64,000 bases of DNA from a virus (lineage: Duplodnaviria; Caudoviricetes): IMG/VR virus record IMGVR_UViG_3300032332_001507, positions 30,178 to 94,177 of that record; one strand, 5' to 3'. The notes below the pieces were generated by a model. That model did no database searches. It had not been told where the DNA came from and saw only the letters and a program-made list of their open reading frames with translations. Both the position numbers and the translations under genes were made by a program. Below, piece after piece: positions 3,103 to 48,513 of this stretch. How positions within the stretch are numbered: position 1 is the first letter of the stretch; each line of letters begins with the position of its first letter.

Positions 3103-4034
3103 AAATTTTATATTTAACAGACATAAACTATAATGGTGTGACGTCTGGTTTCCAAATGGGTCCTAGACCTCCTATGAGTTGGATATCAGGACTAAATTCA
3201 TATCATTGTAGTTATTCAAATATAGATAATATTCCATATGATAATTTTGACATAACAATATTGGGATGTCTTCATGAAAATGTAGACATACTAAATATAG
3301 ATATAATAAATAAAGTTAAAAAGATATCTAAAAAACTACTATTTCAGCATGATAGTGATCACAGATATTTTTATAAAAATAATAACATATTGCGTAGTTA
3401 TATGTTAAATTTTATTATTATAAATGTAGATGGAATATTAACTCACAATGATTTAGATAAAAAATATTACGAAAATTTATATAGAAAACCATGTTTTCAT
3501 CATAAGCAACTACTATTAGACATTTACAATCAGTTAGAACTACCTAATGTGAAAGAAGGTTTTGTATTGGGAGGGGTAGAAGATAGATATGGAACACTAG
3601 ATGGTTATATGTTACTTCAAGATTATCCACTAGAAAAAATATACCATTTTGGAAATACAAACACACAAATTCCTAATCTAAATGTAATTCCAAATGACTT
3701 TGACTATAAAAACTTCAGCCAATCTTTAACTAAATTTAAAATAGCCCTTAATCTAACTCCTTTAGCAATAGGAGGTTCATTCCCACTACAGTGTGCTATG
3801 GTAAAAACTCCATGCATTGGATGGGATAATTCAAATCCCCATAAAGAATGTTTTCCTGACTTAGTTGTTGAATATGGTAATTTTGAAGAATTAAGGTCAA
3901 TTCTAAACAAACTGACAAGTGATTCTGAGTTCTATAATCATGTAGTTGAAAACGCTCGTGATACATTTATCAAAAATTTCTCTTCAGTAGAAAAATATAA
4001 AGAAGATATGATTAAAATTTTTAACCAAATTTAA
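3099..4034 (+). CDS. Putative GT-B-fold glycosyltransferase
   Basis: MKILY start, KIALNL...PLQCAMVKTPCI C-terminal domain, cluster context. Confidence 0.55.
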   Translation: MKILYLTDINYNGVTSGFQMGPRPPMSWISGLNSYHCSYSNIDNIPYDNFDITILGCLHENVDILNIDIINKVKKISKKLLFQHDSDHRYFYKNNNILRSYMLNFIIINVDGILTHNDLDKKYYENLYRKPCFHHKQLLLDIYNQLELPNVKEGFVLGGVEDRYGTLDGYMLLQDYPLEKIYHFGNTNTQIPNLNVIPNDFDYKNFSQSLTKFKIALNLTPLAIGGSFPLQCAMVKTPCIGWDNSNPHKECFPDLVVEYGNFEELRSILNKLTSDSEFYNHVVENARDTFIKNFSSVEKYKEDMIKIFNQI

Positions 4035-11866: not shown

Positions 11867-12086
11867 TAGCTTTGAAGAAAAAGCAGATGCTATAGAAGCA
11901 TTGAATGGATGGAAGTACAAAGCACTACTTTGGGAACTTGATCAAAAGCTTCGTAGTGTACATAAATACGGAGGCTCTCTTGATAGTAATGGAGAAGCAA
12001 CTGAGGAAGAAAGAGATATATGTTATAGAGTAAGAGATGTTATCAGACAAATGTTACGAGAAAGTAATTTAGATATAGAATCATGA
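11820..12086 (+). CDS. Hypothetical protein (start may be ATG 11841)
   Basis: Tiled ORF. Confidence 0.55.
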   Translation: MKHLENVMGKIILEFDSFEEKADAIEALNGWKYKALLWELDQKLRSVHKYGGSLDSNGEATEEERDICYRVRDVIRQMLRESNLDIES

Positions 12087-13252
12087 ACAACCTAGATAAA
12101 TCATATCAAGCACTCCTTCAAGATATTCTTGACAATGGAGTAACTAAGAAAGATAGAACAGGAACTGGTACTAAGAGTCTTTTTGGTAGGCAGATTCGTC
12201 ATAATATGAAAGATGGATTTCCACTTCTCACAACCAAGAAAATGGCTTGGAAGCAGATTGTAACTGAGTTGCTATGGTTTCTAAGAGGTGATACCAATAT
12301 CAAATACCTTGTTGATAATGGATGTAATATATGGACAGGGGATGCTCATAAGAATTATTTAAAAGAAAAAGATAAGGTTGGATTAATTGGAATGGATATA
12401 AGAAATTTTCTTATTAACATTGCTAGAGATGATAAGTTTGCTAAGAAGTGGGGTGAGTTAGGTCCTGTGTATGGTAGACAGTGGAGAAACTGGAATGCTA
12501 TATTTGATGGTGGTGTAGACCAAATCGCAAACCTAATCCGTGACCTTAAAACAAACCCAGACTCAAGACGTTTGATGGTTAATGCCTGGAATGTAGGTGA
12601 GATAGACAAAATGGTTCTTCCACCTTGTCATTATGGATTTCAAGTTTATACAAGAGAGTTGGATATTTCTGAAAGATTAGACTTAGCATATAAAACATAC
12701 TCTGTATTTGAACCGAGTGATTTTATTGAGGTTACTCACCAAGAGATTGATAAGTTGTATCCTGTACCTAGTAGAGCAATCTCTTTAATGTGGAATCAAA
12801 GGTCGGTAGATACATTCTTAGGTTTACCATTCAACATTGCAAGTTATGGATTGTTACTTGAAATCATTGCTAAGGAAGTGAATATGATACCTGATGAATT
12901 AATTGGTAACTTAGGTGATGTTCATTTATATAACAACCACATTGAGCAAGCAAAAGAACAAATTGGTAGATTAACATTAGAAGAGAGAAGGGCGATGGTA
13001 ACTCAAGAACAGTTTGATAAGATTTACACAGCGGGAAGTCCTGATAGTTTATCTCATTCTGAAATTGATCAGTTTGGCGTTCCTAGAAGTACAAGAGAAC
13101 CATTTAAGTTACCTAAACTATACATCAATAGTGAGTTTTGGAATCATGAATATCAAACAATAGATGGATGGATTAAAAGTATGGAGATAGGAGATTTTAC
13201 TTTAGATGGATACCAATCACACCCAACAATTAAAGCACCTTTATCGAATTGA
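12083..13252 (+). CDS. thyA: Thymidylate synthase
   Basis: DRTGTGT, PLLTTK, LGPVYG.QW, LPPCH, QRSVD.FLGLPFN, GDVHLY.NH. Confidence 0.97.
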   Translation: MNNLDKSYQALLQDILDNGVTKKDRTGTGTKSLFGRQIRHNMKDGFPLLTTKKMAWKQIVTELLWFLRGDTNIKYLVDNGCNIWTGDAHKNYLKEKDKVGLIGMDIRNFLINIARDDKFAKKWGELGPVYGRQWRNWNAIFDGGVDQIANLIRDLKTNPDSRRLMVNAWNVGEIDKMVLPPCHYGFQVYTRELDISERLDLAYKTYSVFEPSDFIEVTHQEIDKLYPVPSRAISLMWNQRSVDTFLGLPFNIASYGLLLEIIAKEVNMIPDELIGNLGDVHLYNNHIEQAKEQIGRLTLEERRAMVTQEQFDKIYTAGSPDSLSHSEIDQFGVPRSTREPFKLPKLYINSEFWNHEYQTIDGWIKSMEIGDFTLDGYQSHPTIKAPLSN

Positions 13253-25764: not shown

Positions 25765-26865
25765 ATGAAATTAAACACATTATTCAAACGCGCTGTAAAC
25801 GGCAAAGTAAATGAATGGACCGTTGAAGTAGAAAACAATTGTTTTAGAACAATATCTGGTTATACAGATGGAGTTAAAACAACTTCTGAATGGACCTGCT
25901 GCTCAGGTAAAAATGTAGGTAAGAAAAACGAAACCACACCTGAACAACAAGCATTAGCTGAAGCCCAAGCGATGTGGACTAAGAAAGTGGAATTAGGTAG
26001 TTATGAATCAATAGATGATATTGACACACCTAAGTTCTTCAATCCAATGTTAGCTCATAAATTTGAAGACTATAAAGATAAAATCGAGTACCCAGTTTAC
26101 AGCCAACCTAAACTAGATGGTATCAGATGTATTGTTAGAGCAGATGGTATGTGGAGTCGAAATGGTAAGAAAATCATCTCAGCACCTCACATTTATAAAG
26201 CATTAAAACCATTATTTGAAACCAACCCAGATTTGATTTTTGATGGTGAGTTGTATGCTGATAAGTTCGCAAATGACTTCAATGCTATTTGTTCATTGGT
26301 TAAGAAAACCAAACCAACAAGTGATGATTTAGATAAAAGTAAAGAATCAATTCAATATCACATTTATGATTTACCTAGTCATGATGATGTGTTTAGTGAG
26401 CGATATAGTACTTTAAATAAAATGTCTTTACCTGAGTGTTGTGTATTGGTAAGAACAAGTCATGTCCACGATGCTGAGTGGGTTGATAAGTGGTATGCTG
26501 ACTATGTTAGTGAGGGATATGAGGGTTTGATGGTTCGTTTAAATAAAAAATATGAATCAAAACGCTCTAAGTCATTGCTCAAATACAAATCATTCATTGA
26601 TGAAGAGTACACTATTTTAGATGTAGTTGAGGGTGAGGGTAATAAAACAGGAATGGTAGGCTCGTTTGTATTTGAAAATAAAGATGGAAAACGATTTAAT
26701 GCCTCACCTAAATTCAATTGGGAGGAGTGTACTGCGATGTGGATTGACAGAGTTAATTTGATTGGTAAATCAGCAACAGTTAAGTACTTTAACCTAACAC
26801 CAGGCGATTCACCAGTACCTAGATTTCCATATGTAATCAAAATAGATCGAGAGTCTTACGAGTAA
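25765..26865 (+). CDS. lig: ATP-dependent DNA ligase
   Basis: PMLA, QPKLDGIR, DGELY, YEGLM, LLKYK. Confidence 0.93.
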   Translation: MKLNTLFKRAVNGKVNEWTVEVENNCFRTISGYTDGVKTTSEWTCCSGKNVGKKNETTPEQQALAEAQAMWTKKVELGSYESIDDIDTPKFFNPMLAHKFEDYKDKIEYPVYSQPKLDGIRCIVRADGMWSRNGKKIISAPHIYKALKPLFETNPDLIFDGELYADKFANDFNAICSLVKKTKPTSDDLDKSKESIQYHIYDLPSHDDVFSERYSTLNKMSLPECCVLVRTSHVHDAEWVDKWYADYVSEGYEGLMVRLNKKYESKRSKSLLKYKSFIDEEYTILDVVEGEGNKTGMVGSFVFENKDGKRFNASPKFNWEECTAMWIDRVNLIGKSATVKYFNLTPGDSPVPRFPYVIKIDRESYE

Positions 26866-28150: not shown

Positions 28151-28393
28151 ATGATTGAAACAACACAACCTAAAAAACGCGGCCGTAAGCCAGCAATTAA
28201 ACTTGAAGTTGCACCTCAAATAGTTGAAATTGAAGGTGAAATTGAAGGTACAACAATTGAAAAATTGAAAATGTTAGGTAAACAACTCCAGTTTATGGAT
28301 ATAAAATTGAATGAAGAACCATATCGAATGGAGTTGAGAGTAAAACGAGGTGAAATGTTAAATCGAGTTTATCATTTAATAAGCGAATTATGA
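28151..28393 (+). CDS. Hypothetical protein with AT-hook-like KKRGRKP (start revised to ATG 28151)
   Basis: ATG 4 nt after promoter. Confidence 0.6.
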   Translation: MIETTQPKKRGRKPAIKLEVAPQIVEIEGEIEGTTIEKLKMLGKQLQFMDIKLNEEPYRMELRVKRGEMLNRVYHLISEL

Positions 28394-29355
28394 GTAAAAT
28401 AGATATATTAAAATACCAAAACCAACAATTGGATATGTCTTTGATTGATGTAATCGATTTGTTAATGCCTAAAAGTAAATATACTGAAATGGTAGTTAAT
28501 CTTACTAAATATAACCCAAAAAACGCTATGTCAAATGGAGAGTATGAGGATACCATCAAGTATATCAATAATATGTTTGGGACCCCATTAGATAAACTAA
28601 GACAGTTGTCTAACCATAAGGTATGGGTTATTCAAAACTTAATAGGTATGGTACCTTATAGTTTGAGAGAGAATAATAATTTAAGAAAATTCATTGAGTA
28701 TAATGAACGAGGTTTGATTGATAATAAAGATTTAACTTCATATAAACGTATAGAAGACATTGTAAGACAGATATCAATCGCTGAGGTTAGATTGTTAAAT
28801 AAGGAGTTAATCAAGCAAGTCCATAAAATGTATGAAGATGATGAATGGTTGGTATTACGTCCATTAACTAGGGAGTCATCTGTTAAGTATGGAGCAGGAA
28901 CTAAGTGGTGTACCGCTAGTACTAATGAGGAATATCAATTCTACAGATACACAAGACGAGGTATTTTAATTTACACTATCAATAAAAAAACAGGTCAAAA
29001 GGTAGCAGCGTTTAAAAATACGGATCCATATAATGAGCCTGAATTATCATTTTGGAATGAAATTGATACTCGAATTGATTCATATGAGGCGGAGTTGCCT
29101 GAGTTTATTATGAAGTTGATTTTCAATGAATTTAAAACAACATCCTCTAATTATGATATTACACCTGAGCAGTGGCAAGTAAAAGAAGAGTTAAGTAAAA
29201 GTATTAGTTTAGAAGAGCCAATGGATATGATAGTGGAAGAGCCCACAGTTACGACTTATACAGCGACATTAGAAGCTACTTTACAACAAGCAGTATTAGA
29301 TTATAATAGTTTTACAAACAGTCTTATAAACCCAGCACAAAATGAGCAACATTAA
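28390..29355 (+). CDS. Conserved-looking phage protein (YGxGTKWCT motif)
   Basis: WLVLRPLT...YGAGTKWCTAS. Confidence 0.6.
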   Translation: MSKIDILKYQNQQLDMSLIDVIDLLMPKSKYTEMVVNLTKYNPKNAMSNGEYEDTIKYINNMFGTPLDKLRQLSNHKVWVIQNLIGMVPYSLRENNNLRKFIEYNERGLIDNKDLTSYKRIEDIVRQISIAEVRLLNKELIKQVHKMYEDDEWLVLRPLTRESSVKYGAGTKWCTASTNEEYQFYRYTRRGILIYTINKKTGQKVAAFKNTDPYNEPELSFWNEIDTRIDSYEAELPEFIMKLIFNEFKTTSSNYDITPEQWQVKEELSKSISLEEPMDMIVEEPTVTTYTATLEATLQQAVLDYNSFTNSLINPAQNEQH

Positions 29356-31248: not shown

Positions 31249-31273
31249 AAAGGCGAGAATAAAATCTCGCCTT
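31249..31273. terminator. Likely bidirectional terminator between convergent genes
   Basis: AAGGCGAGA-ATAAAA-TCTCGCCTT. Confidence 0.65.
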
Positions 31274-31310: not shown

Positions 31311-31625
31311 TTAAGCAGTCGGTGTAACGCTTCTCCATCCACTAACGTTAGAAGTTGAACCTGCTGCTCCAAATCCATAAACGAACATCTTAAGGTTAGC
31401 TGCGCTACCTGACATAGCGACTGAACCTGTTACAACGCCCGTTGGAAGTGGATCCATTGGAGTTAAAGTAATTACTGAGCCAAAGTTAGCTACGTTTGAT
31501 TGGTAAATAGAGCTTGAAGCTAAATAGATACCGATTTCGTTTACACGATCTGCTGTTTCGCCTAAACGATCAAGACCGTCTACGAAAAAATAAGGAGTTG
31601 CTGCTGCATTGTTTGGAATTGCCAT
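31311..31625 (-). CDS. Small late (probably virion) protein; only credible minus-strand gene
   Basis: ATATTTAT on minus strand at 31652-31659, AAAACAAAACACA leader, Ser/Gly/Thr-rich. Confidence 0.7.
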   Translation of the reverse strand: MAIPNNAAATPYFFVDGLDRLGETADRVNEIGIYLASSSIYQSNVANFGSVITLTPMDPLPTGVVTGSVAMSGSAANLKMFVYGFGAAGSTSNVSGWRSVTPTA

Positions 31626-31875
31626 TGTGTTTTGTTTTAAGGGTTATACCTATAAATATGGGTGTAGGAGGAACAGGTAGAGGGAGCAGAAAGAACAAGC
31701 AAAGAGAGCAGATAGAGAGAACAGAAAGGTTAGCTAAAGAGAACAAGCAGGGTCATACGCAAGTGTGACCCGCTTTATTTACGTATGTGGTCTAGAGAGA
31801 ACGGCTAGACGGGACAGAATAGTGTATGTGACAGGGTGTGAGATGTGGGTGTAATGGAGTGGTGGGACAGGGTAA

Positions 31876-31899
31876 CCCCATGCCCCGCCCCTTCCCCCC
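31876..31899 (-). other. Potential G-quadruplex (G6-AA-G4-C-G4-CAT-G4)
   Basis: + strand CCCC-ATG-CCCC-G-CCCC-TT-CCCCCC. Confidence 0.6.
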
Positions 31900-31906
31900 T
31901 CTCTCG

Positions 31907-31924
31907 TCGACAAAGTATATACGT
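31907..31924 (+). repeat. 18-bp direct repeat copy 1 TCGACAAAGTATATACGT
   Basis: Exact match to 38022-38039. Confidence 0.9.
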
Positions 31925-32067
31925 TACGAACACCACATATTTTCACAAAGGTATGCAAAAGTGCGTGCCTTTTTGTGTTTTTGTTTGTATATTAAATAAA
32001 AAATTAGGTCTTTTGGGCCCGGGGAGGGGCATTTTTAAAAAAACAGGCAAAAAGAACAAAAATTTAT

Positions 32068-32098
32068 TTGGAAAATTAAAATTTTATTCGTATCGTTA
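32068..32098 (+). promoter_or_regulatory. Early-type promoter
   Basis: TTGG-N17-CGTATCGTTA. Confidence 0.6.
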
Positions 32099-32116
32099 CC
32101 GCATAAATTAAAACAT

Positions 32117-32593
32117 ATGAGCACAAAAGAAATCAAAAAAGAAGTAGCAGAGTTAATGGCTACAACAGCCCACAACTGGAAGGCTGTCTATGGAAAAGAA
32201 GCAGAAGCAACTCAGGAAGAAAGAGAAGAATATGCTAATTTCCGGGAGTATGCGGACAAGAGGATCCAAGAATTGATCCCAGACAGCGAAAAACTATCAA
32301 TCTGTTTATCTGGATGTGCTAAAGGTGATTTGTCCCATTACGACATGGAAGACACACTTAAGATGTTTTTTAAGCCAGGTGAAGGAGTACAGTACGACAG
32401 TGAAAGCGGACAGTTTTGGATGTATGTTAAACCAGAACTAGTACACCCAGTGTTAAGAGCTATCGACCACAACTTCCCAGGTCAAATAAAATTGACAGTA
32501 GATATAAACCGCTATGCAGACAACCCTTGGTTTCAGAATTGGACTCAAGCCGAGAGATATTTAGCTCAGATAAGTGCGGAAACAGGAGAGTAA
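32117..32593 (+). CDS. Hypothetical early protein
   Basis: ORF with own promoter and terminator. Confidence 0.7.
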   Translation: MSTKEIKKEVAELMATTAHNWKAVYGKEAEATQEEREEYANFREYADKRIQELIPDSEKLSICLSGCAKGDLSHYDMEDTLKMFFKPGEGVQYDSESGQFWMYVKPELVHPVLRAIDHNFPGQIKLTVDINRYADNPWFQNWTQAERYLAQISAETGE

Positions 32594-32617
32594 AACGAGC
32601 TCATAATCAAAGTCGAC

Positions 32618-32672
32618 AACCCACCTGCTTAAAGAGAGCGGGTGGGTTTACTCAGAGGAGTTCGTATATTTA
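32618..32672 (+). terminator. Terminator hairpin + early promoter
   Basis: AACCCACCTGCT...AGCGGGTGGGTT; GTGG-N17-CGTATATTTA. Confidence 0.7.
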
Positions 32673-32691
32673 CCTCATAATAATTAAACAC

Positions 32692-32880
32692 ATGAAAAAA
32701 TTTATCGTTACAGAAACAATACCAGCAACCATAGAGTATACCTACTATGTTGAGGCTGAGAATGAAGAACAAGCACTAGAAATAGTGATGGATGGTGATG
32801 CAGAGGAAACGGCTACAATGAGATGGGTTGAAGAAGGTGACGGTGAGTGGGAAGTAGAAGAAGAAAAAGAAGAAAAGTGA
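32692..32880 (+). CDS. Small acidic early protein (start revised to ATG 32692)
   Basis: MKKFIVTET...VEAENEEQALE; E-rich. Confidence 0.7.
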   Translation: MKKFIVTETIPATIEYTYYVEAENEEQALEIVMDGDAEETATMRWVEEGDGEWEVEEEKEEK

Positions 32881-32888
32881 GAAAAAAC

Positions 32889-32919
32889 GTGCCTCTAGGA
32901 AAAACAGGTCGTATATTTA
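32889..32919 (+). promoter_or_regulatory. Early-type promoter
   Basis: GTGC-N17-CGTATATTTA. Confidence 0.7.
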
Positions 32920-32955
32920 AAGCATAATAATTAATAACAAATAAAAATAAAGGTT

Positions 32956-33126
32956 ATGAGCACAGAAAACAAAACAAAAGGACGCCCAGTAGTGGCAGGT
33001 AGCGCACGTCAAGCACGTTTAGCAGCACAAGCAGCTCGAAAAGAAGCAAATGGTGGAGTAGTTAAGCGTGGACGCCCAGCGAAACCAAAAACAGAAACCG
33101 TAGAAGATAGTGTAGTGGAAGCCTAA
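32956..33126 (+). CDS. 56-aa basic protein with two AT-hook-like GRP motifs (not in ORF track)
   Basis: MSTENKTKGRPV...VVKRGRPAKPK; follows promoter. Confidence 0.75.
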   Translation: MSTENKTKGRPVVAGSARQARLAAQAARKEANGGVVKRGRPAKPKTETVEDSVVEA

Positions 33127-33176
33127 CCGGTAAGGTAACCCAGGGGTGGGTGCGACGGCACTCACCCTTTTAAAAA

Positions 33177-33262
33177 GCCGAAGTGGTGGAACTGGTAGAC
33201 ACGCAGGACTTAAAATCCTGTTGCTAGAAACAGCAGTGCGGGTTCGATTCCCGCCTTCGGTA
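33177..33262 (+). tRNA. tRNA-Leu(TAA)
   Basis: GCCGAAG/CTTCGGT acceptor, CAGGA-CTTAAAA-TCCTG anticodon arm, long variable arm, GCGGG-TTCGATT-CCCGC T arm; no encoded CCA. Confidence 0.93.
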
Positions 33263-33266
33263 CAAA

Positions 33267-33334
33267 TGATTAGAGCAGTTAAGGTCATGCCTTAAAGGAA
33301 TGCAGACAGTGGAGATGAGCGTCCCACCTAATCA
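33267..33334 (+). ncRNA. Putative small structured RNA
   Basis: TGATTAG/CTAATCA closing stem enclosing TTAAGG/CCTTAA and GTGG/CCAC hairpins. Confidence 0.35.
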
Positions 33335-33444
33335 AATATAATGAGGGAGGCCCTTAGGCAAGGCTCTATCTGCCGGAACGTATGCCGGTTAGACTAAATA
33401 AAAACTCACTCACGGGATTCAAGCGATGCAAAGCACCCATTAAC

Positions 33445-33517
33445 TAGACCCAGACCTGATCAGTCTGGGTTTTATTTGAAAAATAAGTTGGCCTTTAAAA
33501 TAGGTTTATTATATTGG
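33445..33517 (+). terminator. Terminator followed by variant early promoter
   Basis: AGACCCAGAC-CTGATCA-GTCTGGGTTT; TTGG(33488)-N18-TATATTG. Confidence 0.6.
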
Positions 33518-33547
33518 ATATAATTAATAATTAAATAAATAAAAGTT

Positions 33548-33751
33548 ATGCGTTTAAATCGTACAGCAAAAATGGCATTTTGGAATGCCCGTAAGCAAAG
33601 TGGTGACACCAACCGTATTGCAGAGATGACAGGCTACTCAGTGAGCCACGTGTCAAACATGACAAACGGACGTCGCACCGTAACAGAAGATGTAGCTAAC
33701 GCTATGTATTCAATCTCTAGCAAGCGCAAGAAGCTTAGCAAAATGGCCTAA
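33548..33751 (+). CDS. Small HTH DNA-binding protein
   Basis: RIAEMTGYSVSHVSNMTNGRR XRE-like HTH. Confidence 0.75.
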   Translation: MRLNRTAKMAFWNARKQSGDTNRIAEMTGYSVSHVSNMTNGRRTVTEDVANAMYSISSKRKKLSKMA

Positions 33752-33777
33752 ATGTAGGTCGAGACCATGTGTGTTTT

Positions 33778-33837
33778 AAGAGCGATTCGAAAGAGTCGCT
33801 CTTTTTTTGGCGTTAGCAGAATTCGTTCGTATATTTA
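33778..33837 (+). terminator. Terminator + early promoter
   Basis: AAGAGCGATTC-GAAA-GAGTCGCTCTT-TTTT; TTGG-N17-CGTATATTTA. Confidence 0.75.
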
Positions 33838-33861
33838 CAAAATAATAAAAACACAAAACAC

Positions 33862-34698
33862 ATGAGTAATTTAGTAATTAAAAGAAGAGGCAGACCAGCC
33901 AGTGCAAACAAGCAAACAGCACCAGCTGCAGTAAGCACATTTGATCCAACAGCAATGAGAATTGTAACAGGAGCAGAATTGACGTTTGATGAATCGATCT
34001 TCCGTCCAATGAGAACGGATACGATCATAGACGATATCTTGAGCACCAACCGAGGCTTGATGCCAGCAACCAACATGATCATTTGCGGTGGACCCGGATC
34101 AGGAAAAACAACAATAGTATTGGACATGATGTCCAAGTGGACTAGACAAGGTTATAAGACGTTGTTTGTGTCAGGAGAAATGGACGAGATCGGTTACTAC
34201 AAGTACTGTCGTCGCATGCCTAATATTGCAAACGTGCCTACCTTGTTTTTAAAGAACTATGCTACGAGTGTCAAAGAAGCACTTGAGCATGCGTTTCAAG
34301 AAGGATACGAGATCATTGCAATTGACTCAGTAGCAGAAGTGGTTGACATGTACAAAGACGCTTACCGCACAACAGAGAGTGCAGCTGAATTGTGGTTTCT
34401 AGACTTGCAGACCAGACACAAGAAAGGAGGCAACGACGAGAACATGTACACTGCATTCATCAACATTCAGCAAGTAACTAAATCAGGTGATTTCAGTGGA
34501 TCAAACAGATTAAAACACATGACTGATGCAATGTGCTCGATCAAGAAAGAGAAAGACGGAGATACCAGAACATTAGCATTCAGCAAGAACAGAGATTGTG
34601 ATACGAGCAATTCGATTCAATTCAGAATCGGCTTGAATCAAGTAGAATACAGCTATTCAGAAGCAAATGAAGCTGACTTCGAAGGTGAGCCAGAATAA
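33862..34698 (+). CDS. RecA-superfamily (RadA/Sms-like) ATPase with N-terminal AT-hook-like motif
   Basis: GGPGSGKTT, FVSGEM, IAIDS, QVTKSGDFSGSNRLKHMTD, KNR; KRRGRP. Confidence 0.8.
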   Translation: MSNLVIKRRGRPASANKQTAPAAVSTFDPTAMRIVTGAELTFDESIFRPMRTDTIIDDILSTNRGLMPATNMIICGGPGSGKTTIVLDMMSKWTRQGYKTLFVSGEMDEIGYYKYCRRMPNIANVPTLFLKNYATSVKEALEHAFQEGYEIIAIDSVAEVVDMYKDAYRTTESAAELWFLDLQTRHKKGGNDENMYTAFINIQQVTKSGDFSGSNRLKHMTDAMCSIKKEKDGDTRTLAFSKNRDCDTSNSIQFRIGLNQVEYSYSEANEADFEGEPE

Positions 34699-34720
34699 TG
34701 TGTGTGTTTTAATTATGAAG

Positions 34721-34781
34721 AGGTGGAAGCGAAAGCTTCCACCTTTTTCTTTGGCAGTTGAAAAATTCAGTCGTATATTTA
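34721..34781 (+). terminator. Terminator + early promoter
   Basis: AGGTGGAAGC-GAAA-GCTTCCACCT-TTTT; TTGG-N17-CGTATATTTA. Confidence 0.75.
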
Positions 34782-34810
34782 CAGCATAATAATTAAAAAA
34801 ATTAAATAAC

Positions 34811-35254
34811 ATGAAAACAGTAATGGAACAGTTGATGGAAATCCAAGACAAATTAGATGTTTTAAAAGCACAAGCGCAGCCAGAAGTAGAATGTGATGGT
34901 GTATGTGGGTGTGGATGTGATGAACCAGAAACAGAAACGCCCCAAAAGGTTACACTTACAAATCGAACAGTAGTTAAACTTACATTCACTGAAGAGCAGG
35001 TGATTGCGATCGCTACAGAGCTGGTAAGGCGAACAGTAGATGTATGTAAGGAGGCAGTTACAAATACTAATTTAGAGGACGGTGATTTTATTAGTTTAGA
35101 GTTGAATTACAACAACCAGATCGAAACCACCTTGAATAGTGATGATATTGTTGAATGCATGATCAGTGAAATCGATGATTATGTGAATGTGGATTCTGAT
35201 TCAGTAGCAGATGAAATAGGCAGTATTATAGGGTATTTGAATATTGAGTGTTAA
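34811..35254 (+). CDS. Acidic hypothetical early protein with Cys cluster
   Basis: CDGVCGCGC; D/E-rich. Confidence 0.65.
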   Translation: MKTVMEQLMEIQDKLDVLKAQAQPEVECDGVCGCGCDEPETETPQKVTLTNRTVVKLTFTEEQVIAIATELVRRTVDVCKEAVTNTNLEDGDFISLELNYNNQIETTLNSDDIVECMISEIDDYVNVDSDSVADEIGSIIGYLNIEC

Positions 35255-35285
35255 TTTTCATGTGTGTTTTAATTATAGAGAGATC

Positions 35286-35340
35286 GGGAGCAAATGCTCC
35301 CACTCTTGTTTGGAGTCCAGAATGTTTGAGCGTATATTTA
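35286..35340 (+). terminator. Terminator-like hairpin + early promoter
   Basis: GGGAGC-AAAT-GCTCCC; TTGG-N17-CGTATATTTA. Confidence 0.7.
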
Positions 35341-35365
35341 CCCCATAATTAAAAACCATAAACAC

Positions 35366-35623
35366 ATGAAAGTTGAATTTGAAAACATTGAAACATTATT
35401 TACCTACCAATTGCAAGCGATATTGGATCAGACGGAAGCCGAGATTGCTGAGGTGAAGAACCAGATAAAGCTGATGGGTGAGGAATTAGAGGTACTGGGT
35501 AAAGAACCAGGCGAAGACGATATGATCATGGTGAATATGGCAGCTCAATTTGTGGCGCTAGCCAATAAGATCAAGTATACGGTTAAAGCAGAATTATTAG
35601 ACAGACAACACGAATTAAATTAA
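35366..35623 (+). CDS. Hypothetical early protein
   Basis: ORF after promoter. Confidence 0.65.
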   Translation: MKVEFENIETLFTYQLQAILDQTEAEIAEVKNQIKLMGEELEVLGKEPGEDDMIMVNMAAQFVALANKIKYTVKAELLDRQHELN

Positions 35624-35631
35624 ATAAATAT

Positions 35632-35835
35632 ATGGCAAACGAAAGCAGATCAAACGGAATAGGGATCGGGATGATCTTATTCATTGTATTCCTAGTTTTA
35701 AAATTAACAGGCACCATCGACTGGAGCTGGTGGTGGGTAACAAGTCCACTATGGATCCCATTCGCAGCAGCAATGGTGATATTAGGAATAGTGGGTGTAA
35801 TAGCAATGGTGATCGAATACATCAACAACAAATGA
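35632..35835 (+). CDS. Small two-TM membrane protein (LKL...IDWSWWWV..PLW family)
   Basis: Motif common in phage membrane proteins. Confidence 0.7.
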   Translation: MANESRSNGIGIGMILFIVFLVLKLTGTIDWSWWWVTSPLWIPFAAAMVILGIVGVIAMVIEYINNK

Positions 35836-36380
35836 AGACGCTTGTAGTACACCCAGACGATCGATCAACCGATTTCCTCAGACCGATCTATCAGAACATA
35901 CCTGGGGCTACGGTGATCACTAAGAACATCACCGATGAAACACTGATGAGTGTGATCAGAGCAAATGATCGAATAATAATGCTTGGGCATGGGTCACCGT
36001 CTGGCTTATTTAATGTGTCTGGGATCGGGGTGGGGTTGTTTGCAATTGGATCCCAACACGTTGATGTGCTAACGACCAAGGAATGTATTTACATCTGGTG
36101 TAACGCCGATCAGTTTATTGATAAGCACAATCTGAACGGTCTGTACTCAGGTATGTTTGTGAGTGAGGTAGCGGAAGCCAGATATTGCGGGTTACCGTCT
36201 GCAACCCAAGAGCAGGTGGATCAATCAAATGATGAGTTCGCTAGGATGCTCGGCTTAACTCTGACAGCAACCCCGGATCTGGGGCAGGTGCACTCGACAG
36301 TGGGATCAGAATATCAGTTATTAGCTGAGAGTAATGAGGTAGCAAAATACAACGTTGAAAGATGGTATTATAAAAATTAA
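35832..36380 (+). CDS. Putative clan CD (caspase/gingipain-like) cysteine peptidase (start revised to ATG 35832)
   Basis: IIMLGHG and IYIWC strand-end His/Cys motifs. Confidence 0.5.
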   Translation: MKTLVVHPDDRSTDFLRPIYQNIPGATVITKNITDETLMSVIRANDRIIMLGHGSPSGLFNVSGIGVGLFAIGSQHVDVLTTKECIYIWCNADQFIDKHNLNGLYSGMFVSEVAEARYCGLPSATQEQVDQSNDEFARMLGLTLTATPDLGQVHSTVGSEYQLLAESNEVAKYNVERWYYKN

Positions 36381-36388
36381 TGTTTTGT

Positions 36389-36419
36389 TTGGTTGTTTGA
36401 GATTGTGGTTGTATATTTA
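36389..36419 (+). promoter_or_regulatory. Early-type promoter
   Basis: TTGG-N17-TGTATATTTA. Confidence 0.7.
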
Positions 36420-36444
36420 CAGCAATAATTAAAACACAAATAAA

Positions 36445-36687
36445 ATGGTAAAATTAAAAAATGAAGTTACTGGATTTGTTTATGATTCAGTTTACGGTTA
36501 TGTTAAAACAATTTTTGATCAACCTTTAACTGAAAATGAAATTAAGTTAATTGAGAGAGTATTAAATGAAGATGATGTATTATTTACTGATAATGAAGGT
36601 TTAAATGATATGTTTACATTTGATTGTAAAGAGGATTTAGAGAATAATGAAGAAGGTTTTAATGAGATTTTAGAGTGGGTTAAATAA
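36445..36687 (+). CDS. Small acidic early protein, C-poor gene
   Basis: Own promoter; about 10 C in 243 nt. Confidence 0.7.
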   Translation: MVKLKNEVTGFVYDSVYGYVKTIFDQPLTENEIKLIERVLNEDDVLFTDNEGLNDMFTFDCKEDLENNEEGFNEILEWVK

Positions 36688-36706
36688 ACCTACTTTAATA
36701 TTTTAT

Positions 36707-36737
36707 TTGGTTATTTAAAACAGTATTCGTATATTTA
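36707..36737 (+). promoter_or_regulatory. Early-type promoter
   Basis: TTGG-N17-CGTATATTTA. Confidence 0.75.
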
Positions 36738-36762
36738 AAACATAATTAAAAAAATAAAACAT

Positions 36763-36957
36763 ATGAAAAATTTTGTTGTGATTAGTAAAGAAGACAGTAG
36801 TGATTATTTTATTGTAAGTGACTTAAATGAGTTGATCAATGAAATGTTTGAGGTTGATTTGTTGAATGGTGATTCATTTGAAACTGTTAGAGGTTATTTA
36901 TTTAATAATTTTATTGTGTTTGAGTCTGAAAGTAAAATAGATGAAGTTTGGTATTAA
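36763..36957 (+). CDS. Small acidic early protein, C-poor gene
   Basis: Own promoter; about 6 C in 195 nt. Confidence 0.7.
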   Translation: MKNFVVISKEDSSDYFIVSDLNELINEMFEVDLLNGDSFETVRGYLFNNFIVFESESKIDEVWY

Positions 36958-36993
36958 AGTGATCAGATTTAAGGGGTTAAAAATGATCAGATT

Positions 36994-37021
36994 AAAGGGT
37001 GACTTAGGTTACCCTTTATTT
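36994..37021 (+). terminator. Intrinsic terminator
   Basis: AAAGGGTGAC-TTAG-GTTACCCTTT-ATTT. Confidence 0.65.
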
Positions 37022-37059
37022 GTTTAAAAAATATTATCTAAAAAAATATATTATTTTAT

Positions 37060-37090
37060 TTGTTTAATTAAAAATTAAATTGTATATTTA
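37060..37090 (+). promoter_or_regulatory. Early-type promoter, C-less variant
   Basis: TTGT-N17-TGTATATTTA. Confidence 0.65.
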
Positions 37091-37113
37091 CAGAAATAAT
37101 TAAAATAAATAAT

Positions 37114-37392
37114 ATGAAAAAAGTAATTGAATTTAAGAAGTTTTTAGATGAGAATGTTAATGAGATAAAAGATTTATTAGTTGATGTTTTTGAGTGTGAT
37201 GAGGATGATGTAGATAAAGTTGTTAGTTTTGAGGATGATAAGTTTGGAGGTTTTATTGGTTGTAATGAAAAAGGTGAAGGTGTAGTGTTTGGTTGTAATT
37301 TGTATGAGTATGAAGTTGATGATGAAGATGTAAGTGTAGGAATGGAAGTAATTGAAGGTAAGAAAGTATATTTTATGTGTTATGATTTTTAG
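37114..37392 (+). CDS. Highly acidic 92-aa early protein encoded by a cytosine-free gene (DNA-mimic/anti-defence candidate)
   Basis: Own promoter and terminator; about 26 D/E; no C in coding strand. Confidence 0.75.
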   Translation: MKKVIEFKKFLDENVNEIKDLLVDVFECDEDDVDKVVSFEDDKFGGFIGCNEKGEGVVFGCNLYEYEVDDEDVSVGMEVIEGKKVYFMCYDF

Positions 37393-37417
37393 TTAGTTGA
37401 AGTGTAGTTGTTAAATT

Positions 37418-37452
37418 AAAGGATATATTTTAATTAATGTATCCTTTTTTTA
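37418..37452 (+). terminator. Intrinsic terminator
   Basis: AAAGGATATATT...AATGTATCCTTT-TTTT. Confidence 0.6.
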
Positions 37453-37460
37453 TTTTATAT

Positions 37461-37491
37461 TTGGTTAGTTAAAAATTAAATTATATATTTA
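37461..37491 (+). promoter_or_regulatory. Early-type promoter variant
   Basis: TTGG-N17-TATATATTTA. Confidence 0.65.
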
Positions 37492-37519
37492 CAGCATAAC
37501 AATTAAAACCTTAAAACAC

Positions 37520-37630
37520 ATGAAAACAAAAACCAGTATTTTAGATCACATTAAGTTTGTAGTTACAACAATTAGTTTGCTTAGTGCTTGGTGTTTAGCA
37601 ATGCTTTGGTTACTAACGGTAAATCGTTAA
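37520..37630 (+). CDS. 36-aa single-TM peptide (not in ORF track)
   Basis: MKTKTSILDHIKFVVTTISLLSAWCLAMLWLLTVNR; TAAAACACATG leader. Confidence 0.6.
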   Translation: MKTKTSILDHIKFVVTTISLLSAWCLAMLWLLTVNR

Positions 37631-37726
37631 ATAAACGCGTTTAACCCAATGTCTATGTTAAATCGCATGGGGTTGTGGAAAACATGTTTAATGCGAGTAA
37701 ATGCGCGCTTACGTTAATATTTTAAA

Positions 37727-37760
37727 CACCCACCACATTTTACGGTGGGTGTCTTTTTTT
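37727..37760 (+). terminator. Intrinsic terminator
   Basis: ACACCCACC...GGTGGGTGT-C-TTTTTTT. Confidence 0.7.
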
Positions 37761-38015
37761 AGGGGAGTATGCGTATATATATGCCGTACGTATGCCGTAC
37801 ATATATAGTAATACGGCAGTGTATCTCCCGTACGCGTTACTGTCCATGTACGTGTATCCGTATCCTTTGATGGTACTACCCGCACCTTCAACTCGTAAAC
37901 GTATAACGCCGGCCGAGCGTATATACGTATATCCCAACAACGCAACATGGAATTTCGAATTACCCCTTTTGGCAAAAAAATATGAAAATTAAAGTTTCTC
38001 TTCTTGCAAAAAAGT

Positions 38016-38046
38016 TTGGCATCGACAAAGTATATACGTATATTTA
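38016..38046 (+). promoter_or_regulatory. Early-type promoter whose spacer is the 18-bp repeat copy 2 (38022-38039)
   Basis: TTGG-CA-TCGACAAAGTATATA-CGTATATTTA. Confidence 0.8.
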
Positions 38047-38064
38047 CCGCATAAAATAAAGGTT

Positions 38065-38292
38065 ATGACACCAAAAGAAAAAGCAAATGAATTATTTAGT
38101 AGATACTATGTTATGTTGCTAAAAACAGATTCTGATATTTCGGAAGAAATTACAATATCCTTGTTATCAAAACAATGTGCATTGATAGCAGTAAATGAGA
38201 TATTGTCTATGGGTATAATGTCTGATAGTGGTGATTGGAGAATGGCTAAATCTTATTGGGAAGAAGTTAAAAAAGAAATAGAAAAGATATGA
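38065..38292 (+). CDS. Hypothetical phage protein
   Basis: MTPKEKA...ALIAVNEI...YWEEVKKEI. Confidence 0.65.
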   Translation: MTPKEKANELFSRYYVMLLKTDSDISEEITISLLSKQCALIAVNEILSMGIMSDSGDWRMAKSYWEEVKKEIEKI

Positions 38293-39025: not shown

Positions 39026-39095
39026 AGTCAGGTGGCGTAATTGGTAACGCCTTATATTGGTATAGGAGATATAGGTTCGAATCCTGTCCTGACTA
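39026..39095 (+). tRNA. tRNA-like RNA with shortened non-canonical anticodon arm
   Basis: AGTCAGG/CCTGACT acceptor, GCGT/ACGC D arm, ATAGG-TTCGAAT-CCTGT T arm; TTATA-TTGG-TATAG anticodon arm. Confidence 0.65.
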
Positions 39096-39110
39096 CTAAA
39101 AAATAAAAAT

Positions 39111-42015: not shown

Positions 42016-42308
42016 TGACATTAGTAATAATATTAGGTTTAATGGTCGTGATCTTAGGATACACGACCTTTAATCTTCTTAGGAAACTCGAAAAACAAGA
42101 GGATGCTATGAATAATCAAGCTACAATTCTAGCTTCTTATTTATCATACTTGAACAAGATCTCAGATATAATTGAATTCTCAGATAAGAAATTAAAGGAA
42201 GTAGATCATAAGGGTTCATTTAAAACAGACGATGAAGTAGGTTTTTTCTTTGAAGAAATTAAACAAATACAAAGTACTTTAAATCAATTTAAAGTTAAAA
42301 ATTTATGA
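42012..42308 (+). CDS. Single-TM coiled-coil protein
   Basis: N-terminal TM; F..DDEVG.FF. Confidence 0.6.
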   Translation: MMTLVIILGLMVVILGYTTFNLLRKLEKQEDAMNNQATILASYLSYLNKISDIIEFSDKKLKEVDHKGSFKTDDEVGFFFEEIKQIQSTLNQFKVKNL

Positions 42309-43006
42309 TTGAGGTGAAAGAAAAAAAGAATACTCAATATTTTACTCAAGATACTGAGGATGCAATTGTATTATATAATGGCCTTACAGATCAAACAGAA
42401 CGAGATATTCTATATAGAACTCGTATCCATTATGCTTTTTTTAAGTTAACAGAAAATATTATCCATACTTTTAAATTTTATTATACTGAAGTAGATAATA
42501 TTGAAGATTTACAACATGAGGTAATTACATTCTTACTCACTAAATTACATTTATTTGACCCAAGTAAAGGTGCTAAAGCATATTCTTACTTTGGAACAAT
42601 TGCTAAACGTTATTTAATTAATAGTAATAATAAAAATTATAAAAAACGAGTTGAAAAAGCACCTGTTAGTGAGATTGAATCTAATGAATCATTTTCATAT
42701 CGGATAGATGAGGGTTCTGAAAATGATAAATTAATTCATTTTATAGATCAATATGTAATTTATTGTACAGATAATATTAATGAATTATTCCCTAAAAAGA
42801 CAGATGCTCAAATAGCAGATGCTATTCTAGAGTTATTCCGTAAACGTGAGAGTATAGACGTCTTTAATAAGAAGGCATTGTATATATATATTCGTGAAAT
42901 TATTGATGCTAAAACTCCTAAAATCACTAAGATAGCCGATAGACTATATGATATATTTAAACAACATTATTTCTATTATCTAGAAAATGGACATACAGAT
43001 TTCTAA
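42305..43006 (+). CDS. Phage RNA polymerase sigma factor (gp55-like)
   Basis: EDLQHE...LHLFDPSKGAKAYSYFGTIAKRYL, sigma region-2-like. Confidence 0.7.
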   Translation: MIEVKEKKNTQYFTQDTEDAIVLYNGLTDQTERDILYRTRIHYAFFKLTENIIHTFKFYYTEVDNIEDLQHEVITFLLTKLHLFDPSKGAKAYSYFGTIAKRYLINSNNKNYKKRVEKAPVSEIESNESFSYRIDEGSENDKLIHFIDQYVIYCTDNINELFPKKTDAQIADAILELFRKRESIDVFNKKALYIYIREIIDAKTPKITKIADRLYDIFKQHYFYYLENGHTDF

Positions 43007-46665: not shown

Positions 46666-48513
46666 ATGGCCGACGAAAAGAAAAATATAAATTATATAAA
46701 TAAGGATTTTAATCAATTTAAAACATCATTAGTAGATTATGCTAAAACATATTTTTCTACTGTATATAACGATTTCACACCATCTTCACCAGGAATGATG
46801 TTCATGGAAATGTCTGCGTATATAGGTGATGTTTTATCATTTTATTTAGATAATCAAATTCAAGAGACATTTTTACAATTTACTCGCCAACAAAATAATT
46901 TATATAATTTGGCTTACACAATGGGTTACAAACCTAAAGTAACTTCAGTTTCCACAGTGAATATAGATGTATATCAACAAGTACCTTCAAACGCTGGTTC
47001 ACCAGATTATAATTACTCATTACAAGTTAAACCAAATACTGTAATAAAACCATCAGTTGGAGATTCTTTCTTCTTAATTCAAGATCCAATAGATTTTAGT
47101 TTCTCTAGTTCATCAGACCCAACAGAAACTACTTTATATAGTACATCTCCTGATTATTATCTTTTAAAGAAAACAAGAAAAGCAATTTCAGCTGAAATAA
47201 AAACAACTACTTTTACTTTTGGTCCTCCTCAGAAATTTTTGACTGTTGAATTAAGTAATTCTAATATAATTGGAATCTTAGATATAGTAGATAGTGATGG
47301 GAACACTTGGTATGAAGTACCATATCTAGCTCAAGAAACTATTTATGATACTATAAAAAATACTAATGTAAATAATCCTACATTATTTTCAGACAGTAGT
47401 AATACTCCATATCTACTTCAACTTAAAAAAGTTCAACGACGTTTTGTAACTCGTTTTATAAATGAAACAACATTACAAATTCAATTTGGAGCAGGTACCA
47501 ACACCTCAAATACAGATGAAGAGATTATTCCTAATCCAGATAATGTAGGTTTAGGTTTACCTTATAAACAATCAAAACTAAATACAGCATTTTCACCTGC
47601 TAACTTTTTATATACTGATACTTATGGTATCTCTCCTAATAATACTACATTAACAGTTAGATATTTAGTTGGAGGTGGATTACAAGCCAATGTAGCAGCA
47701 GGAACATTATCAGTTATTCCTAATAAAAATACAGATTTTGTTTTTAACAATACTGGATTATCAGCAGTTACCGCTCAATATGTTTTTAATAATATAGTAA
47801 CAAATAATCCATCAGCAGCTAGTGGAGGAGGCCCAGGAGATTCAGATGAAGATATTCGTCTAAAATCATTAGGTACATTTATTACTCAACAAAGAACAAT
47901 AACCCAAGATGATTATTTAATTAGAGCTTTATCTTTACCCTCAGATTATGGAAACATAGCTAAAGTATATGTCGAACCAGAAAAAATATCAAGTTTATTA
48001 CCTGGTGAAACACCATCAGTTCTTAATATGTTTATTTTAGCTTATAATGCTGATAAAAAATTAATAACTTCTTCTCCATCATTAAAACAAAATTTATCAA
48101 CTTATATTTCACAATATAGAGTAATAAACGACTCAATTAAAATTAAAGACGCCTTTATCATTAACATAGGTGTAGATTTTGAAATAATTGTTTTACCCCA
48201 ATATAATAATAATTTAGTATTAACTAACTGTATAACAGCCTTACAAGATTATTTTAATATTGATAAATGGCAAATCAATGAACCTATAATTTTAAAAGAT
48301 TTATTTATTCTTTTAGATAAAATTGAAGGAGTTCAAACTGTCAAAGCAGTTAATATAACTAACAATTCAGGAATATCTTTAGGATACTCAGCTTTTTCAT
48401 ATGATATACCTGGAGCTATCCAAAATAATATTATATATCCAAGTTTAGATCCTATGATATTTGAAGTAAAATACCCTAATAAAGATATTAAAGGTAAAGT
48501 TGTATCTTTTTAA
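46666..48513 (+). CDS. Baseplate wedge protein, gp6/J-like
   Basis: KDFNQFK, AYIGDVLSFYLD, LAYTMGY, GGG...DSDEDIR, QRTITQDDY. Confidence 0.85.
   Translation: MADEKKNINYINKDFNQFKTSLVDYAKTYFSTVYNDFTPSSPGMMFMEMSAYIGDVLSFYLDNQIQETFLQFTRQQNNLYNLAYTMGYKPKVTSVSTVNIDVYQQVPSNAGSPDYNYSLQVKPNTVIKPSVGDSFFLIQDPIDFSFSSSSDPTETTLYSTSPDYYLLKKTRKAISAEIKTTTFTFGPPQKFLTVELSNSNIIGILDIVDSDGNTWYEVPYLAQETIYDTIKNTNVNNPTLFSDSSNTPYLLQLKKVQRRFVTRFINETTLQIQFGAGTNTSNTDEEIIPNPDNVGLGLPYKQSKLNTAFSPANFLYTDTYGISPNNTTLTVRYLVGGGLQANVAAGTLSVIPNKNTDFVFNNTGLSAVTAQYVFNNIVTNNPSAASGGGPGDSDEDIRLKSLGTFITQQRTITQDDYLIRALSLPSDYGNIAKVYVEPEKISSLLPGETPSVLNMFILAYNADKKLITSSPSLKQNLSTYISQYRVINDSIKIKDAFIINIGVDFEIIVLPQYNNNLVLTNCITALQDYFNIDKWQINEPIILKDLFILLDKIEGVQTVKAVNITNNSGISLGYSAFSYDIPGAIQNNIIYPSLDPMIFEVKYPNKDIKGKVVSF

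Follow-up and report, generated by a model that had tools for sequence, protein, structure and literature searches.

In phage T5, the pre-early genes lie in a long terminal repeat, the first-step-transfer DNA, and the two-step entry of this phage has been shown experimentally. In SPO1, host-takeover genes lie in a 13-kb terminal repeat, again as an experimental result (cited in PMC6873191). T4-type phages such as RB49/phi1, T4/PST and KVP40/nt-1 carry PeSL cassettes, i. e. a terminator stem-loop joined to an early promoter, which fill hyperplastic regions and mediate modular shuffling (PMC2839356, PMC4122927). Here, we describe a promoter-dense module of about 14 small genes and a tRNA-Leu gene that lies between two conserved non-coding blocks, A and B, in a stretch of 64,000 nucleotides of viral DNA, the window, which corresponds to bases 30178-94177 of the 94,177-bp IMG/VR record IMGVR_UViG_3300032332_001507; coordinates are window positions unless stated otherwise. 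Since a stem-loop and a host-type promoter are repeated in front of small ORFans and these units are clustered in a variable region, we consider it reasonably probable that the module is a PeSL-type hyperplastic early region of a T4-superfamily Flavobacteriia myovirus, built from cassettes with a Bacteroidota promoter grammar.

The recurrent cassette of the module runs, in this order, through a stop codon, a stem-loop terminator, a promoter, an A-rich leader without a Shine-Dalgarno sequence and a start codon. An earlier note on this DNA had listed 12 copies of an early promoter. The motif is indeed present at all 12 positions, with a mean spacing of 541 bp, but only nine copies are complete (TTTG(G), 20 nt, TATATTTAc, then gCATAATAATTAAA, with the ATG 10-25 nt further on); those at 32642 and 32889 have the exact -7 core without TTTG at -33, and the copy at 33488 is weak. 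A matrix built from the nine complete promoters detects six further copies in the other 88 kb of the record, all on the + strand, and none in five shuffled sequences, so that the density is ~2 per kb in the module versus 0.07 per kb elsewhere. Terminator-like hairpins number 12 in the region as compared to 4.2 +/- 2.3 in shuffled sequences; there are eight + strand terminator hairpins, many of which directly abut the -33 element, and several of their T-runs merge into the next TTTGG. Promoter-dense small-gene units with terminators, as postulated in the earlier note, are thus borne out. The primary-sigma consensus of the Bacteroidota consists of TTTG at -33, a spacer of 19-21 nt and TAnnTTTG at -7 with a nearly invariant G at -5 (PMC6847099). 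In the module, nine of the 12 promoters have the TTTG, the spacer is 20 nt, and T-12, A-11, T-8, T-7 and T-6 are kept; A-rich leaders without Shine-Dalgarno sequences are also expected for this phylum. Contigs from an RNA library match the window at high identity at 33.4-35.2 kb and 36.8-37.0 kb, and hardly at all in the flanks that were covered, which is a weak hint at transcription of the module.

Among the relatives, the borders of insertions and replacements fall at the cassette motifs, as seen in the alignment with locus L049 (78-89% identical in DNA) and in the gene order of L001, L002, L056 and L083. L049 carries an extra gene with its own promoter in front of the membrane-protein gene and, between the same two promoters, a different gene in place of that at 36445; L056 lacks the gene at 38065; L001 has homologs of the same genes in another order, with the ATPase gene outside the segment that is bracketed by the 17-nt box described below.

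The record is of freshwater metagenomic origin, and ten studies contain many freshwater runs in which parts of the region are found again. It is classed as linear (IMG/VR), has no end repeats and is 55% complete (CheckV); the true genome size is probably near 160 kb. Its genes are nearly throughout on the + strand and encode, among others, a family-B DNA polymerase (PolB), a clamp loader, GroEL, an exonuclease, GTP cyclohydrolase I (FolE), thymidylate synthase, an RNA ligase, a DNA ligase and a gp6-like baseplate wedge that is 47.5% identical to the wedge protein of Flavobacterium phage immuto. Genes for terminase, major capsid and portal proteins are absent from the 55% fragment. The TerL protein of the closest syntenic relative, G002, matches T4 gp17 (E 4e-37) and is 62% identical to that of immuto, ~30% to those of T4-like cyanophages and ~27% to those of T4-like coliphages and T5-like phages alike. 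Because of the encoded PolB, clamp loader, RNA ligase and wedge and the kinship of the G002 TerL, the phage probably belongs to the uncultured freshwater Flavobacteriia myoviruses of the wider T4 superfamily, as a relative of immuto. Among cultured-phage records, matches to the whole region were limited to a tRNA and one 108-nt piece.

In our model, each cassette would combine an intrinsic terminator, the T-run of which passes into the -33 TTTG that follows, with a Bacteroidota-type promoter and an A-rich leader lacking a Shine-Dalgarno sequence. Shortly after infection, host RNA polymerase would transcribe every cassette simultaneously, while the terminators would insulate the units from one another and from the neighbouring operons. 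The comparison with relatives shows the repeated cassettes to be also the sites at which genes are inserted, replaced and reordered. One unit would be kept wholly free of C from start site to terminator, compositional dialects would move with the units, and the flanking blocks with their terminators, a G-run/C-run hairpin and a shared 17-nt box would bound and insulate the module.

The module shares with PeSL regions the composite of a terminator and a strong host-type promoter, present in many copies in front of small ORFans between conserved core genes, the indels and replacements at the cassettes, the G-tract/C-tract stem-loops and, probably, the residence in a T4-superfamily phage. This likeness is read from the DNA, and promoter activity, terminator activity and mini-circles are predictions in our case. 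Unlike the PeSL phages, the phage described here has a Bacteroidota host, promoters that are TTTG/TAnnTTTG-like rather than sigma-70-like, and no Shine-Dalgarno sequences; moreover, two conserved non-coding blocks with a shared 17-nt box bound the module, and some units have an extreme, apparently selected composition (no C; GATC excess). Two features go beyond what is described, the nucleotide-lipogram units, i. e. units that would be kept free of one nucleotide, and the conserved pair of bounding boxes. Our analysis would extend the PeSL picture, so far one of coliphage- and vibriophage-type T4 relatives, to Bacteroidota phages with a different promoter grammar, and it provides a compact natural set of predicted strong Flavobacteriia promoters, terminators and Shine-Dalgarno-less leaders. 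The resemblance to known host-takeover regions, to which the earlier note had pointed, is supported for the dense module, the small genes and the host-type promoters: SPO1 also packs some two dozen small early genes, with strong promoters for the host polymerase, into a few kb, and several of the products are acidic, but the SPO1 genes form operons, whereas single-gene units with terminators prevail here, and there is no sequence similarity.

Several observations weigh against the PeSL-type interpretation. The -5 position is A in all 12 module promoters rather than the nearly invariant G of host promoters, and the module promoters carry an extended conserved tCG and a conserved downstream stretch; because of these features, a phage factor may take part at these promoters. 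That the genes are expressed early and that they are transcribed by the host polymerase is what we infer. The cassette model also leaves unexplained why the contig that covers the module (33.2-38.17 kb) has a 1.75x depth in the source run and why a pair of boxes is found ~6 kb apart in three phages. Finally, the record, just 55% complete, holds no information on the genome ends, and a gp17-like TerL is known only from relatives, G002, and not from the phage of the window.

Both of the long non-coding blocks that had been reported to flank the module were found, and both are conserved elements. Block A is composed of ~13-nt purine iterons (31655-31750, AGGAGGAACAG-like), a terminator (31750-31771), a G-rich tract (31834-31872), a C-rich tract (31876-31906) and a second terminator (31947-31972). 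The same architecture is present in L001, L002, L039 (genome G003) and L047; the order in the relatives is a G-rich C-poor tract, a C-rich G-poor tract and then the box TCGAYAAAGTATATACG. The iterons resemble Shine-Dalgarno sequences (AGGAGGAACAG, AGAGGGAGCAG, AGAAGGATTRGGT) and occur, besides the window, in L002 (6380-6480 and 6890-7010) and L001 (2640-2720); each array ends at a + strand terminator, and the two arrays of L002 are separated by an 18-G run. They could be protein-binding sites or give rise to a short purine-rich RNA. Block B contains a terminator (37727-37760), repeated GTATATAC(G)TATAT boxes and the boxes GCGYTRNTGTCCAT and TTTCGAATTACCCC, and is conserved over ~300 nt in at least 12 IMG/VR contigs from several lineages, with no match among cultured-phage records. 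When 12 copies of block B were folded with RNAalifold, the result was -7 kcal/mol across 358 columns, with a single covarying pair, and a role as structured RNA was thus ruled out; because of this lack of an RNA-structure signal, block B is likely to act as DNA. At both gathering and permissive thresholds, Rfam detected only tRNAs and no family in block A, block B or the stretch behind the tRNA-Leu gene. The final part of block B is the twelfth promoter, in which the 17-nt box forms the spacer. In our phage, L001 and L002, this box is present exactly twice, in direct orientation, at distances of 6115, 5893 and 6606 nt, and it is 100% identical in the three phages while the flanks have diverged. 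The pair may mark the two ends of a terminal repeat, serve as paired operators or be a recombination joint that selection has retained, and it is in any case a defined candidate for a packaging, regulatory or recombination site.

It is conceivable, if unlikely, that the ~6.1-kb segment between the boxes is a long direct terminal repeat at the genome end that enters first, with genes expressed first in the style of T5 or SPO1, and that the 17-nt box is the terminase recognition or cutting site at both borders; the blocks could then mark the repeat. This idea does not contradict the cassette reading, and the two could hold together. A weak hint at a repeat is the depth of the contigs, which is one figure per assembled contig and sums the k-mers shared with related strains in the sample: 19.1 at 20.0-29.4 kb, 29.1 at 29.35-33.2 kb, 36.7 at 33.2-38.17 kb, 21.9 at 38.14-39.1 kb and 21.2 at 39.1-45.9 kb in the source run. 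The 1.75x depth would agree with a repeat, and the blended value of 29.1 is consistent with a left border at about 31.3-31.9 kb. In another sample from this study, the depth was about 2x with much noise; a third one had no excess. However, many related strains add shared k-mers to such figures, and the drop in depth coincides with the contig break at 38138-38167, which is directly explained by a branch to another strain; strains that co-occur and share the module explain the 1.75x depth equally well, and packaged mini-circles or replication intermediates could also contribute. The boxes, exactly two in direct orientation 5.9-6.6 kb apart in three phages, would suit a repeat, but many contigs with block B have no second box within 8 kb upstream, and neither content nor order of the segment is fixed: the ATPase gene of L001 lies outside, and the neighbourhood of the C-free gene differs in L083. 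The content resembles the host-takeover module that SPO1 carries in its terminal redundancy (PMC6873191). With T5, the module has in common that an early module lies beside repeat-rich non-coding DNA, and T5-like terminases are distant matches of the G002 TerL at 27% identity; the difference is that repeat and two-step entry are experimental findings for T5, whereas this TerL is closest to those of immuto and the T4-like cyanophages. Terminase kinship, as judged by these scores, leans towards the T4-like group, with T5-like phages scoring about equal to T4-like coliphages. The records of the relatives are linear, and that of immuto begins at a gene and contains no repeat. Contigs of relatives that end within 10 kb of the ATPase gene were considered as a signal of a genome end and rejected, as their number is at chance level for short contigs. 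Contig joints from promoter to promoter have short sides and may stem from other strains.

A very improbable explanation is that the 6-kb segment is a captured or mobile block of cassettes that arrived by Campbell-type integration at a promoter, with the boxes as duplicated homology and circles that raise the depth. The segment is indeed flanked by direct repeats and has a raised depth, the second box lies in a predicted working promoter while the first is a promoter-less remnant behind the G-run/C-run hairpin, and packaged PeSL mini-circles are known (PMC2839356). Against it, Pfam and PHROG searches revealed no integrase or other recombinase among the proteins of the segment, no deleted or circularised segment is present among the contigs listed, and the conservation of 17 nt at 100% amid diverged flanks suggests a working site rather than a scar.

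Within the PeSL-type module, the most unusual cassette is the C-free transcription unit. Its C-free run (37092-37442, 351 nt) is the longest in the 94-kb record, where the next longest has 88 nt, and 4e-19 such runs are expected at the C content of the record. All four homologous genes that could be read as DNA (ours, L080/L049, L082 and L083; 64-100% protein identity) have no C at all, in runs of 317-418 nt. Each of the four runs starts immediately behind the final C of the -7 box and ends within the 3' arm of the terminator, and L083 keeps these borders despite different promoter and terminator sequences. Our unit differs from that of L049 at 63 of 405 aligned positions, with 29 A/G and no C/T differences; C is involved in 38 of the 81 differences found in the neighbouring genes. 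Of 1568 residues in the cluster representatives of the protein family (about 58-91% identity in the search table), 3 have codons that need C, whereas such residues account for 21% in other proteins of the window. In the family, 26 columns are invariant, and an AlphaFold model of moderate confidence (pLDDT, the predicted local distance difference test, of 73.5) shows an alpha/beta protein for which Foldseek found no match in the PDB. Since C is strictly absent over this divergence, the borders coincide with start site and terminator, and the gene has been relocated in L083, the most economical reading of these alignments is that selection acting on the transcription unit maintains the C-free state. 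One hypermutation event in the past cannot account for it, and a local mutational bias would have to stop at the terminator and accompany the gene to its other locus, which is very unlikely. An origin by strand-specific C-to-T hypermutation, due to a deaminase or to a deamination of the non-template strand that is linked to transcription, would account for the fall in C by ~0.14 and the rise in T by ~0.15 at unchanged A relative to the neighbouring genes and for an amino-acid make-up rich in V, F, Y and C, but it is close to refuted: the C-free state persists across 16% DNA divergence and down to 64% protein identity with no T-to-C change, in runs that end at start site and terminator in four contexts, with intact reading frames, the invariant columns and a confident fold model, the next gene on the same strand, 80 nt downstream, has 12.6% C, and the L083 copy of the C-free gene has neighbours with a normal C content on both sides.

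Selection may act on the lack of C in the RNA or on the lack of G in the template strand, and either would fit the observation that C occurs only in the base-paired 3' end of the message. We tentatively suggest that such lipogram genes are units that are kept free of one nucleotide to be expressible when that letter is attacked: the message would have C only in the 3' arm of the terminator, and the template would be almost devoid of G. The attack could come from a chain-terminating CTP analogue, a shortage of CTP, a ribonuclease directed at C or an enzyme damaging (modified) G. Further examples of composition chosen for or against an activity of host or phage would then be the neighbours with their graded poverty in C and the GATC-rich units. 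The unit points to a pressure that is specific for one nucleotide during early infection and for which the literature searched has no description: full-text searches for natural cytosine-free phage genes found no description, and the viperin/ddhCTP literature contained no link to C-free genes. G-less and C-less cassettes are established synthetic tools for in vitro transcription. They share with the unit that it can be copied with one nucleotide left out, but they are man-made, whereas the unit is part of a natural family of protein-coding genes under apparent selection. The earlier idea that sequence composition itself carries function thus finds support at least in the C-free unit, where composition seems to be selected.

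The other compositional zones of the earlier note fared differently. A C-poor zone is real, but instead of C-depleted genes followed by C-free genes it holds one C-free gene and two C-poor ones: the genes at 36445-36687, 36763-36957 and 37114-37392 are the three lowest in C among 148 open reading frames, and only the last has no C. A tandem 20-24-nt repeat with TGATCA in each copy (AAAGTGATCAGATTTAAGGG / AAAATGATCAGATTAAAGGG) at 36956-36999, between the second C-poor gene and its terminator, holds two of the few C's that remain in this zone. The GATC-dense genes and the CGTA-dense block were both recovered, with 21 GATC sites in 35255-36380 (18.7 per kb versus 2.7 in the record) and 11 CGTA sites in 37631-38064 (25 per kb versus 1.6 in the record). 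As compared to synonymous-codon shuffles, GATC sites number 9 versus 2.5 in the ATPase gene, 5 versus 2.7 in the membrane-protein gene and 12 versus 5.3 in g35832. Several large genes outside the module (12083-13252, 25765-26865, 28390-29355 and 46666-48513) have fewer GATC sites than their synonymous shuffles, for example 1 versus 4.5 in thyA, the opposite of the excess in the module. Pfam models for Dam-type methylases gave no match on the 55% fragment. The segment at 32.1-36.4 kb has 39-45% G+C within a genome of 31%; the ATPase gene has ~41% G+C here and in L002, 36% in L001 and 27-32% in about 30 other relatives. The rise in G+C is thus lineage-specific, and the GATC excess reflects it just partly. 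Of the purine-rich/G4 block (G4, G-quadruplex), the purine content was confirmed (70% over 31640-31875 in block A), but the record has richer purine stretches, and the sole canonical G4 motif of block A is a minus-strand one (C-tracts at 31876-31899), with none on the + strand at loop lengths of up to 12 nt. The ordered zoning did not hold up in the relatives: only L049/L080 and, weakly, L001 share the order, L002 lacks a C-poor zone although both blocks are present, and the C-free gene of L083 is located upstream of the ATPase gene, between genes of 11-12% C. Because of this varying order, the dialects are best assigned, on these comparisons, to single transcription units with which they travel, and are not bound to a position.

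A link to modified DNA arises from the closest cultured relative. Immuto replaces all G by formyl-preQ1 via DpdA3 (PMC10516641); we took the DpdA3 pathway to comprise a DpdA transglycosylase together with FolE, QueD, QueE and QueC. FolE, a preceding gene with a phosphoribosyltransferase domain and the hydrolase of the cluster are present on the record and are common to immuto and our phage (PMC10516641), whereas DpdA3, DpdN, QueF, QueD and QueE were not found on the 55% fragment, and the TGT/DpdA Pfam models gave no match. At bases 47-3496 of the record, in front of the window (L037), the genes for the phosphoribosyltransferase, FolE, a GIY-YIG/HNH homing endonuclease, an ORFan and a MazG-like hydrolase follow each other in the order of the immuto 7-deazaguanine cluster, but no DpdA3, DpdN, Tmk or QueF gene precedes the DNA polymerase; QueD and QueE would be expected precisely at the place where the contig begins. 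DpdA3 is present in the relatives G003, G004 and G005, and it is missing from our phage at both places known from relatives, between hydrolase and polymerase as in immuto and behind the ATPase gene as in G003 and G004. In these two genomes (G003:C1:4248-5024, L087; G004:C1:111961-112734, L086), a DpdA3-type DNA guanine transglycosylase, 34-35% identical to that of immuto, is encoded ~560 nt downstream of the RadA/KaiC-like ATPase, a place taken in the window by an unrelated gene for a 147-aa protein. The ATPase may be a working partner of the DpdA3-type transglycosylase. A template strand without G would escape agents that are aimed at modified G.

Several of the module products are very acidic, and for ten of the 14 genes neither Pfam nor PHROGs gave a match at E values below 0.001; beyond the helix-turn-helix regulator, the P-loop ATPase and phrog_1374, Pfam and PHROGs detected nothing in any module protein. 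In the ESM Atlas, g35832 matched unnamed viral clusters only. The earlier note had pictured site-free anti-defence genes beside decoy DNA; by Pfam, PHROGs, Foldseek and the ESM Atlas, no module protein can be assigned to a known anti-defence family, and for block B conservation was found, not a decoy function.

Predicted features of the module and its borders (window positions)
Feature	Position	Strand	Remark
Two-way terminator hairpin	31250..31273	.	closes the upstream + strand operon
104-aa open reading frame, no family	31311..31625	-	only minus-strand open reading frame of the region
Block A, conserved non-coding element	31626..32067	+	
17/18-nt box copy 1, TCGACAAAGTATATACG(T)	31907..31924	+	no -7 box behind
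Promoter copy 1, TTTGG-N17-TCGTATCGTTAC	32068..32106	+	variant -7
158-aa gene, no family	32117..32593	+	homolog in L002; terminator at 32619-32650
Promoter copy 2	32642..32680	+	exact -7 core, no -33 TTTG
62-aa gene	32692..32880	+	very acidic
Promoter copy 3	32889..32927	+	-7 core only
56-aa gene	32956..33126	+	basic
tRNA-Leu(UAA)	33177..33263	+	
Non-coding stretch behind tRNA-Leu, ~210 nt	33264..33475	+	no open reading frame, no Rfam family; strong terminator at end
Promoter copy 4	33488..33526	+	weak
Helix-turn-helix regulator, 67 aa	33548..33751	+	
Promoter copy 5	33807..33845	+	
RadA/KaiC-like P-loop ATPase, 278 aa	33862..34698	+	
Promoter copy 6	34751..34789	+	
147-aa gene, no family	34811..35254	+	
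Promoter copy 7	35310..35348	+	
Three-gene unit: 85-aa coiled-coil-like protein, 67-aa membrane protein (phrog_1374), 182-aa viral ORFan	35366..36380	+	GATC-dense core
Promoter copy 8	36389..36427	+	
C-poor gene, 80 aa	36445..36687	+	acidic; 10 C in 243 nt; homolog in L001
Promoter copy 9	36707..36745	+	
C-poor gene, 64 aa	36763..36957	+	acidic; 6 C in 195 nt; then tandem repeat and terminator
Promoter copy 10	37060..37098	+	consensus C's replaced, only C of TTTAC left
C-free transcription unit	37092..37442	+	leader, 92-aa gene 37114-37392, 3' untranslated region, 5' arm and loop of terminator
Promoter copy 11	37461..37499	+	
36-aa gene	37520..37630	+	hydrophobic; normal C content
Block B, conserved non-coding DNA element	37631..38015	+	
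Promoter copy 12	38016..38054	+	spacer is 17/18-nt box copy 2 (38022-38039)

The 104-aa open reading frame sits between the end of the upstream operon and block A; the relative L002 has no gene at this place, and one RNA-library contig maps to 31441-31591, within this frame. The stretch behind the tRNA-Leu gene varies among strains, in some of which 84 nt are replaced or skipped (joint 33255 to 33340), and an RNA-library contig begins at 33423. About 1 kb behind block B, at 39026-39096, there is a further tRNA gene (50 bits with Rfam), for which ARAGORN reports a two-base anticodon 'tg' and no amino acid; its anticodon loop may be odd. Further downstream (42305-43006), a 233-aa protein with a weak match to Sigma70 region 2 (E 1e-4) is a candidate phage sigma factor for late transcription.

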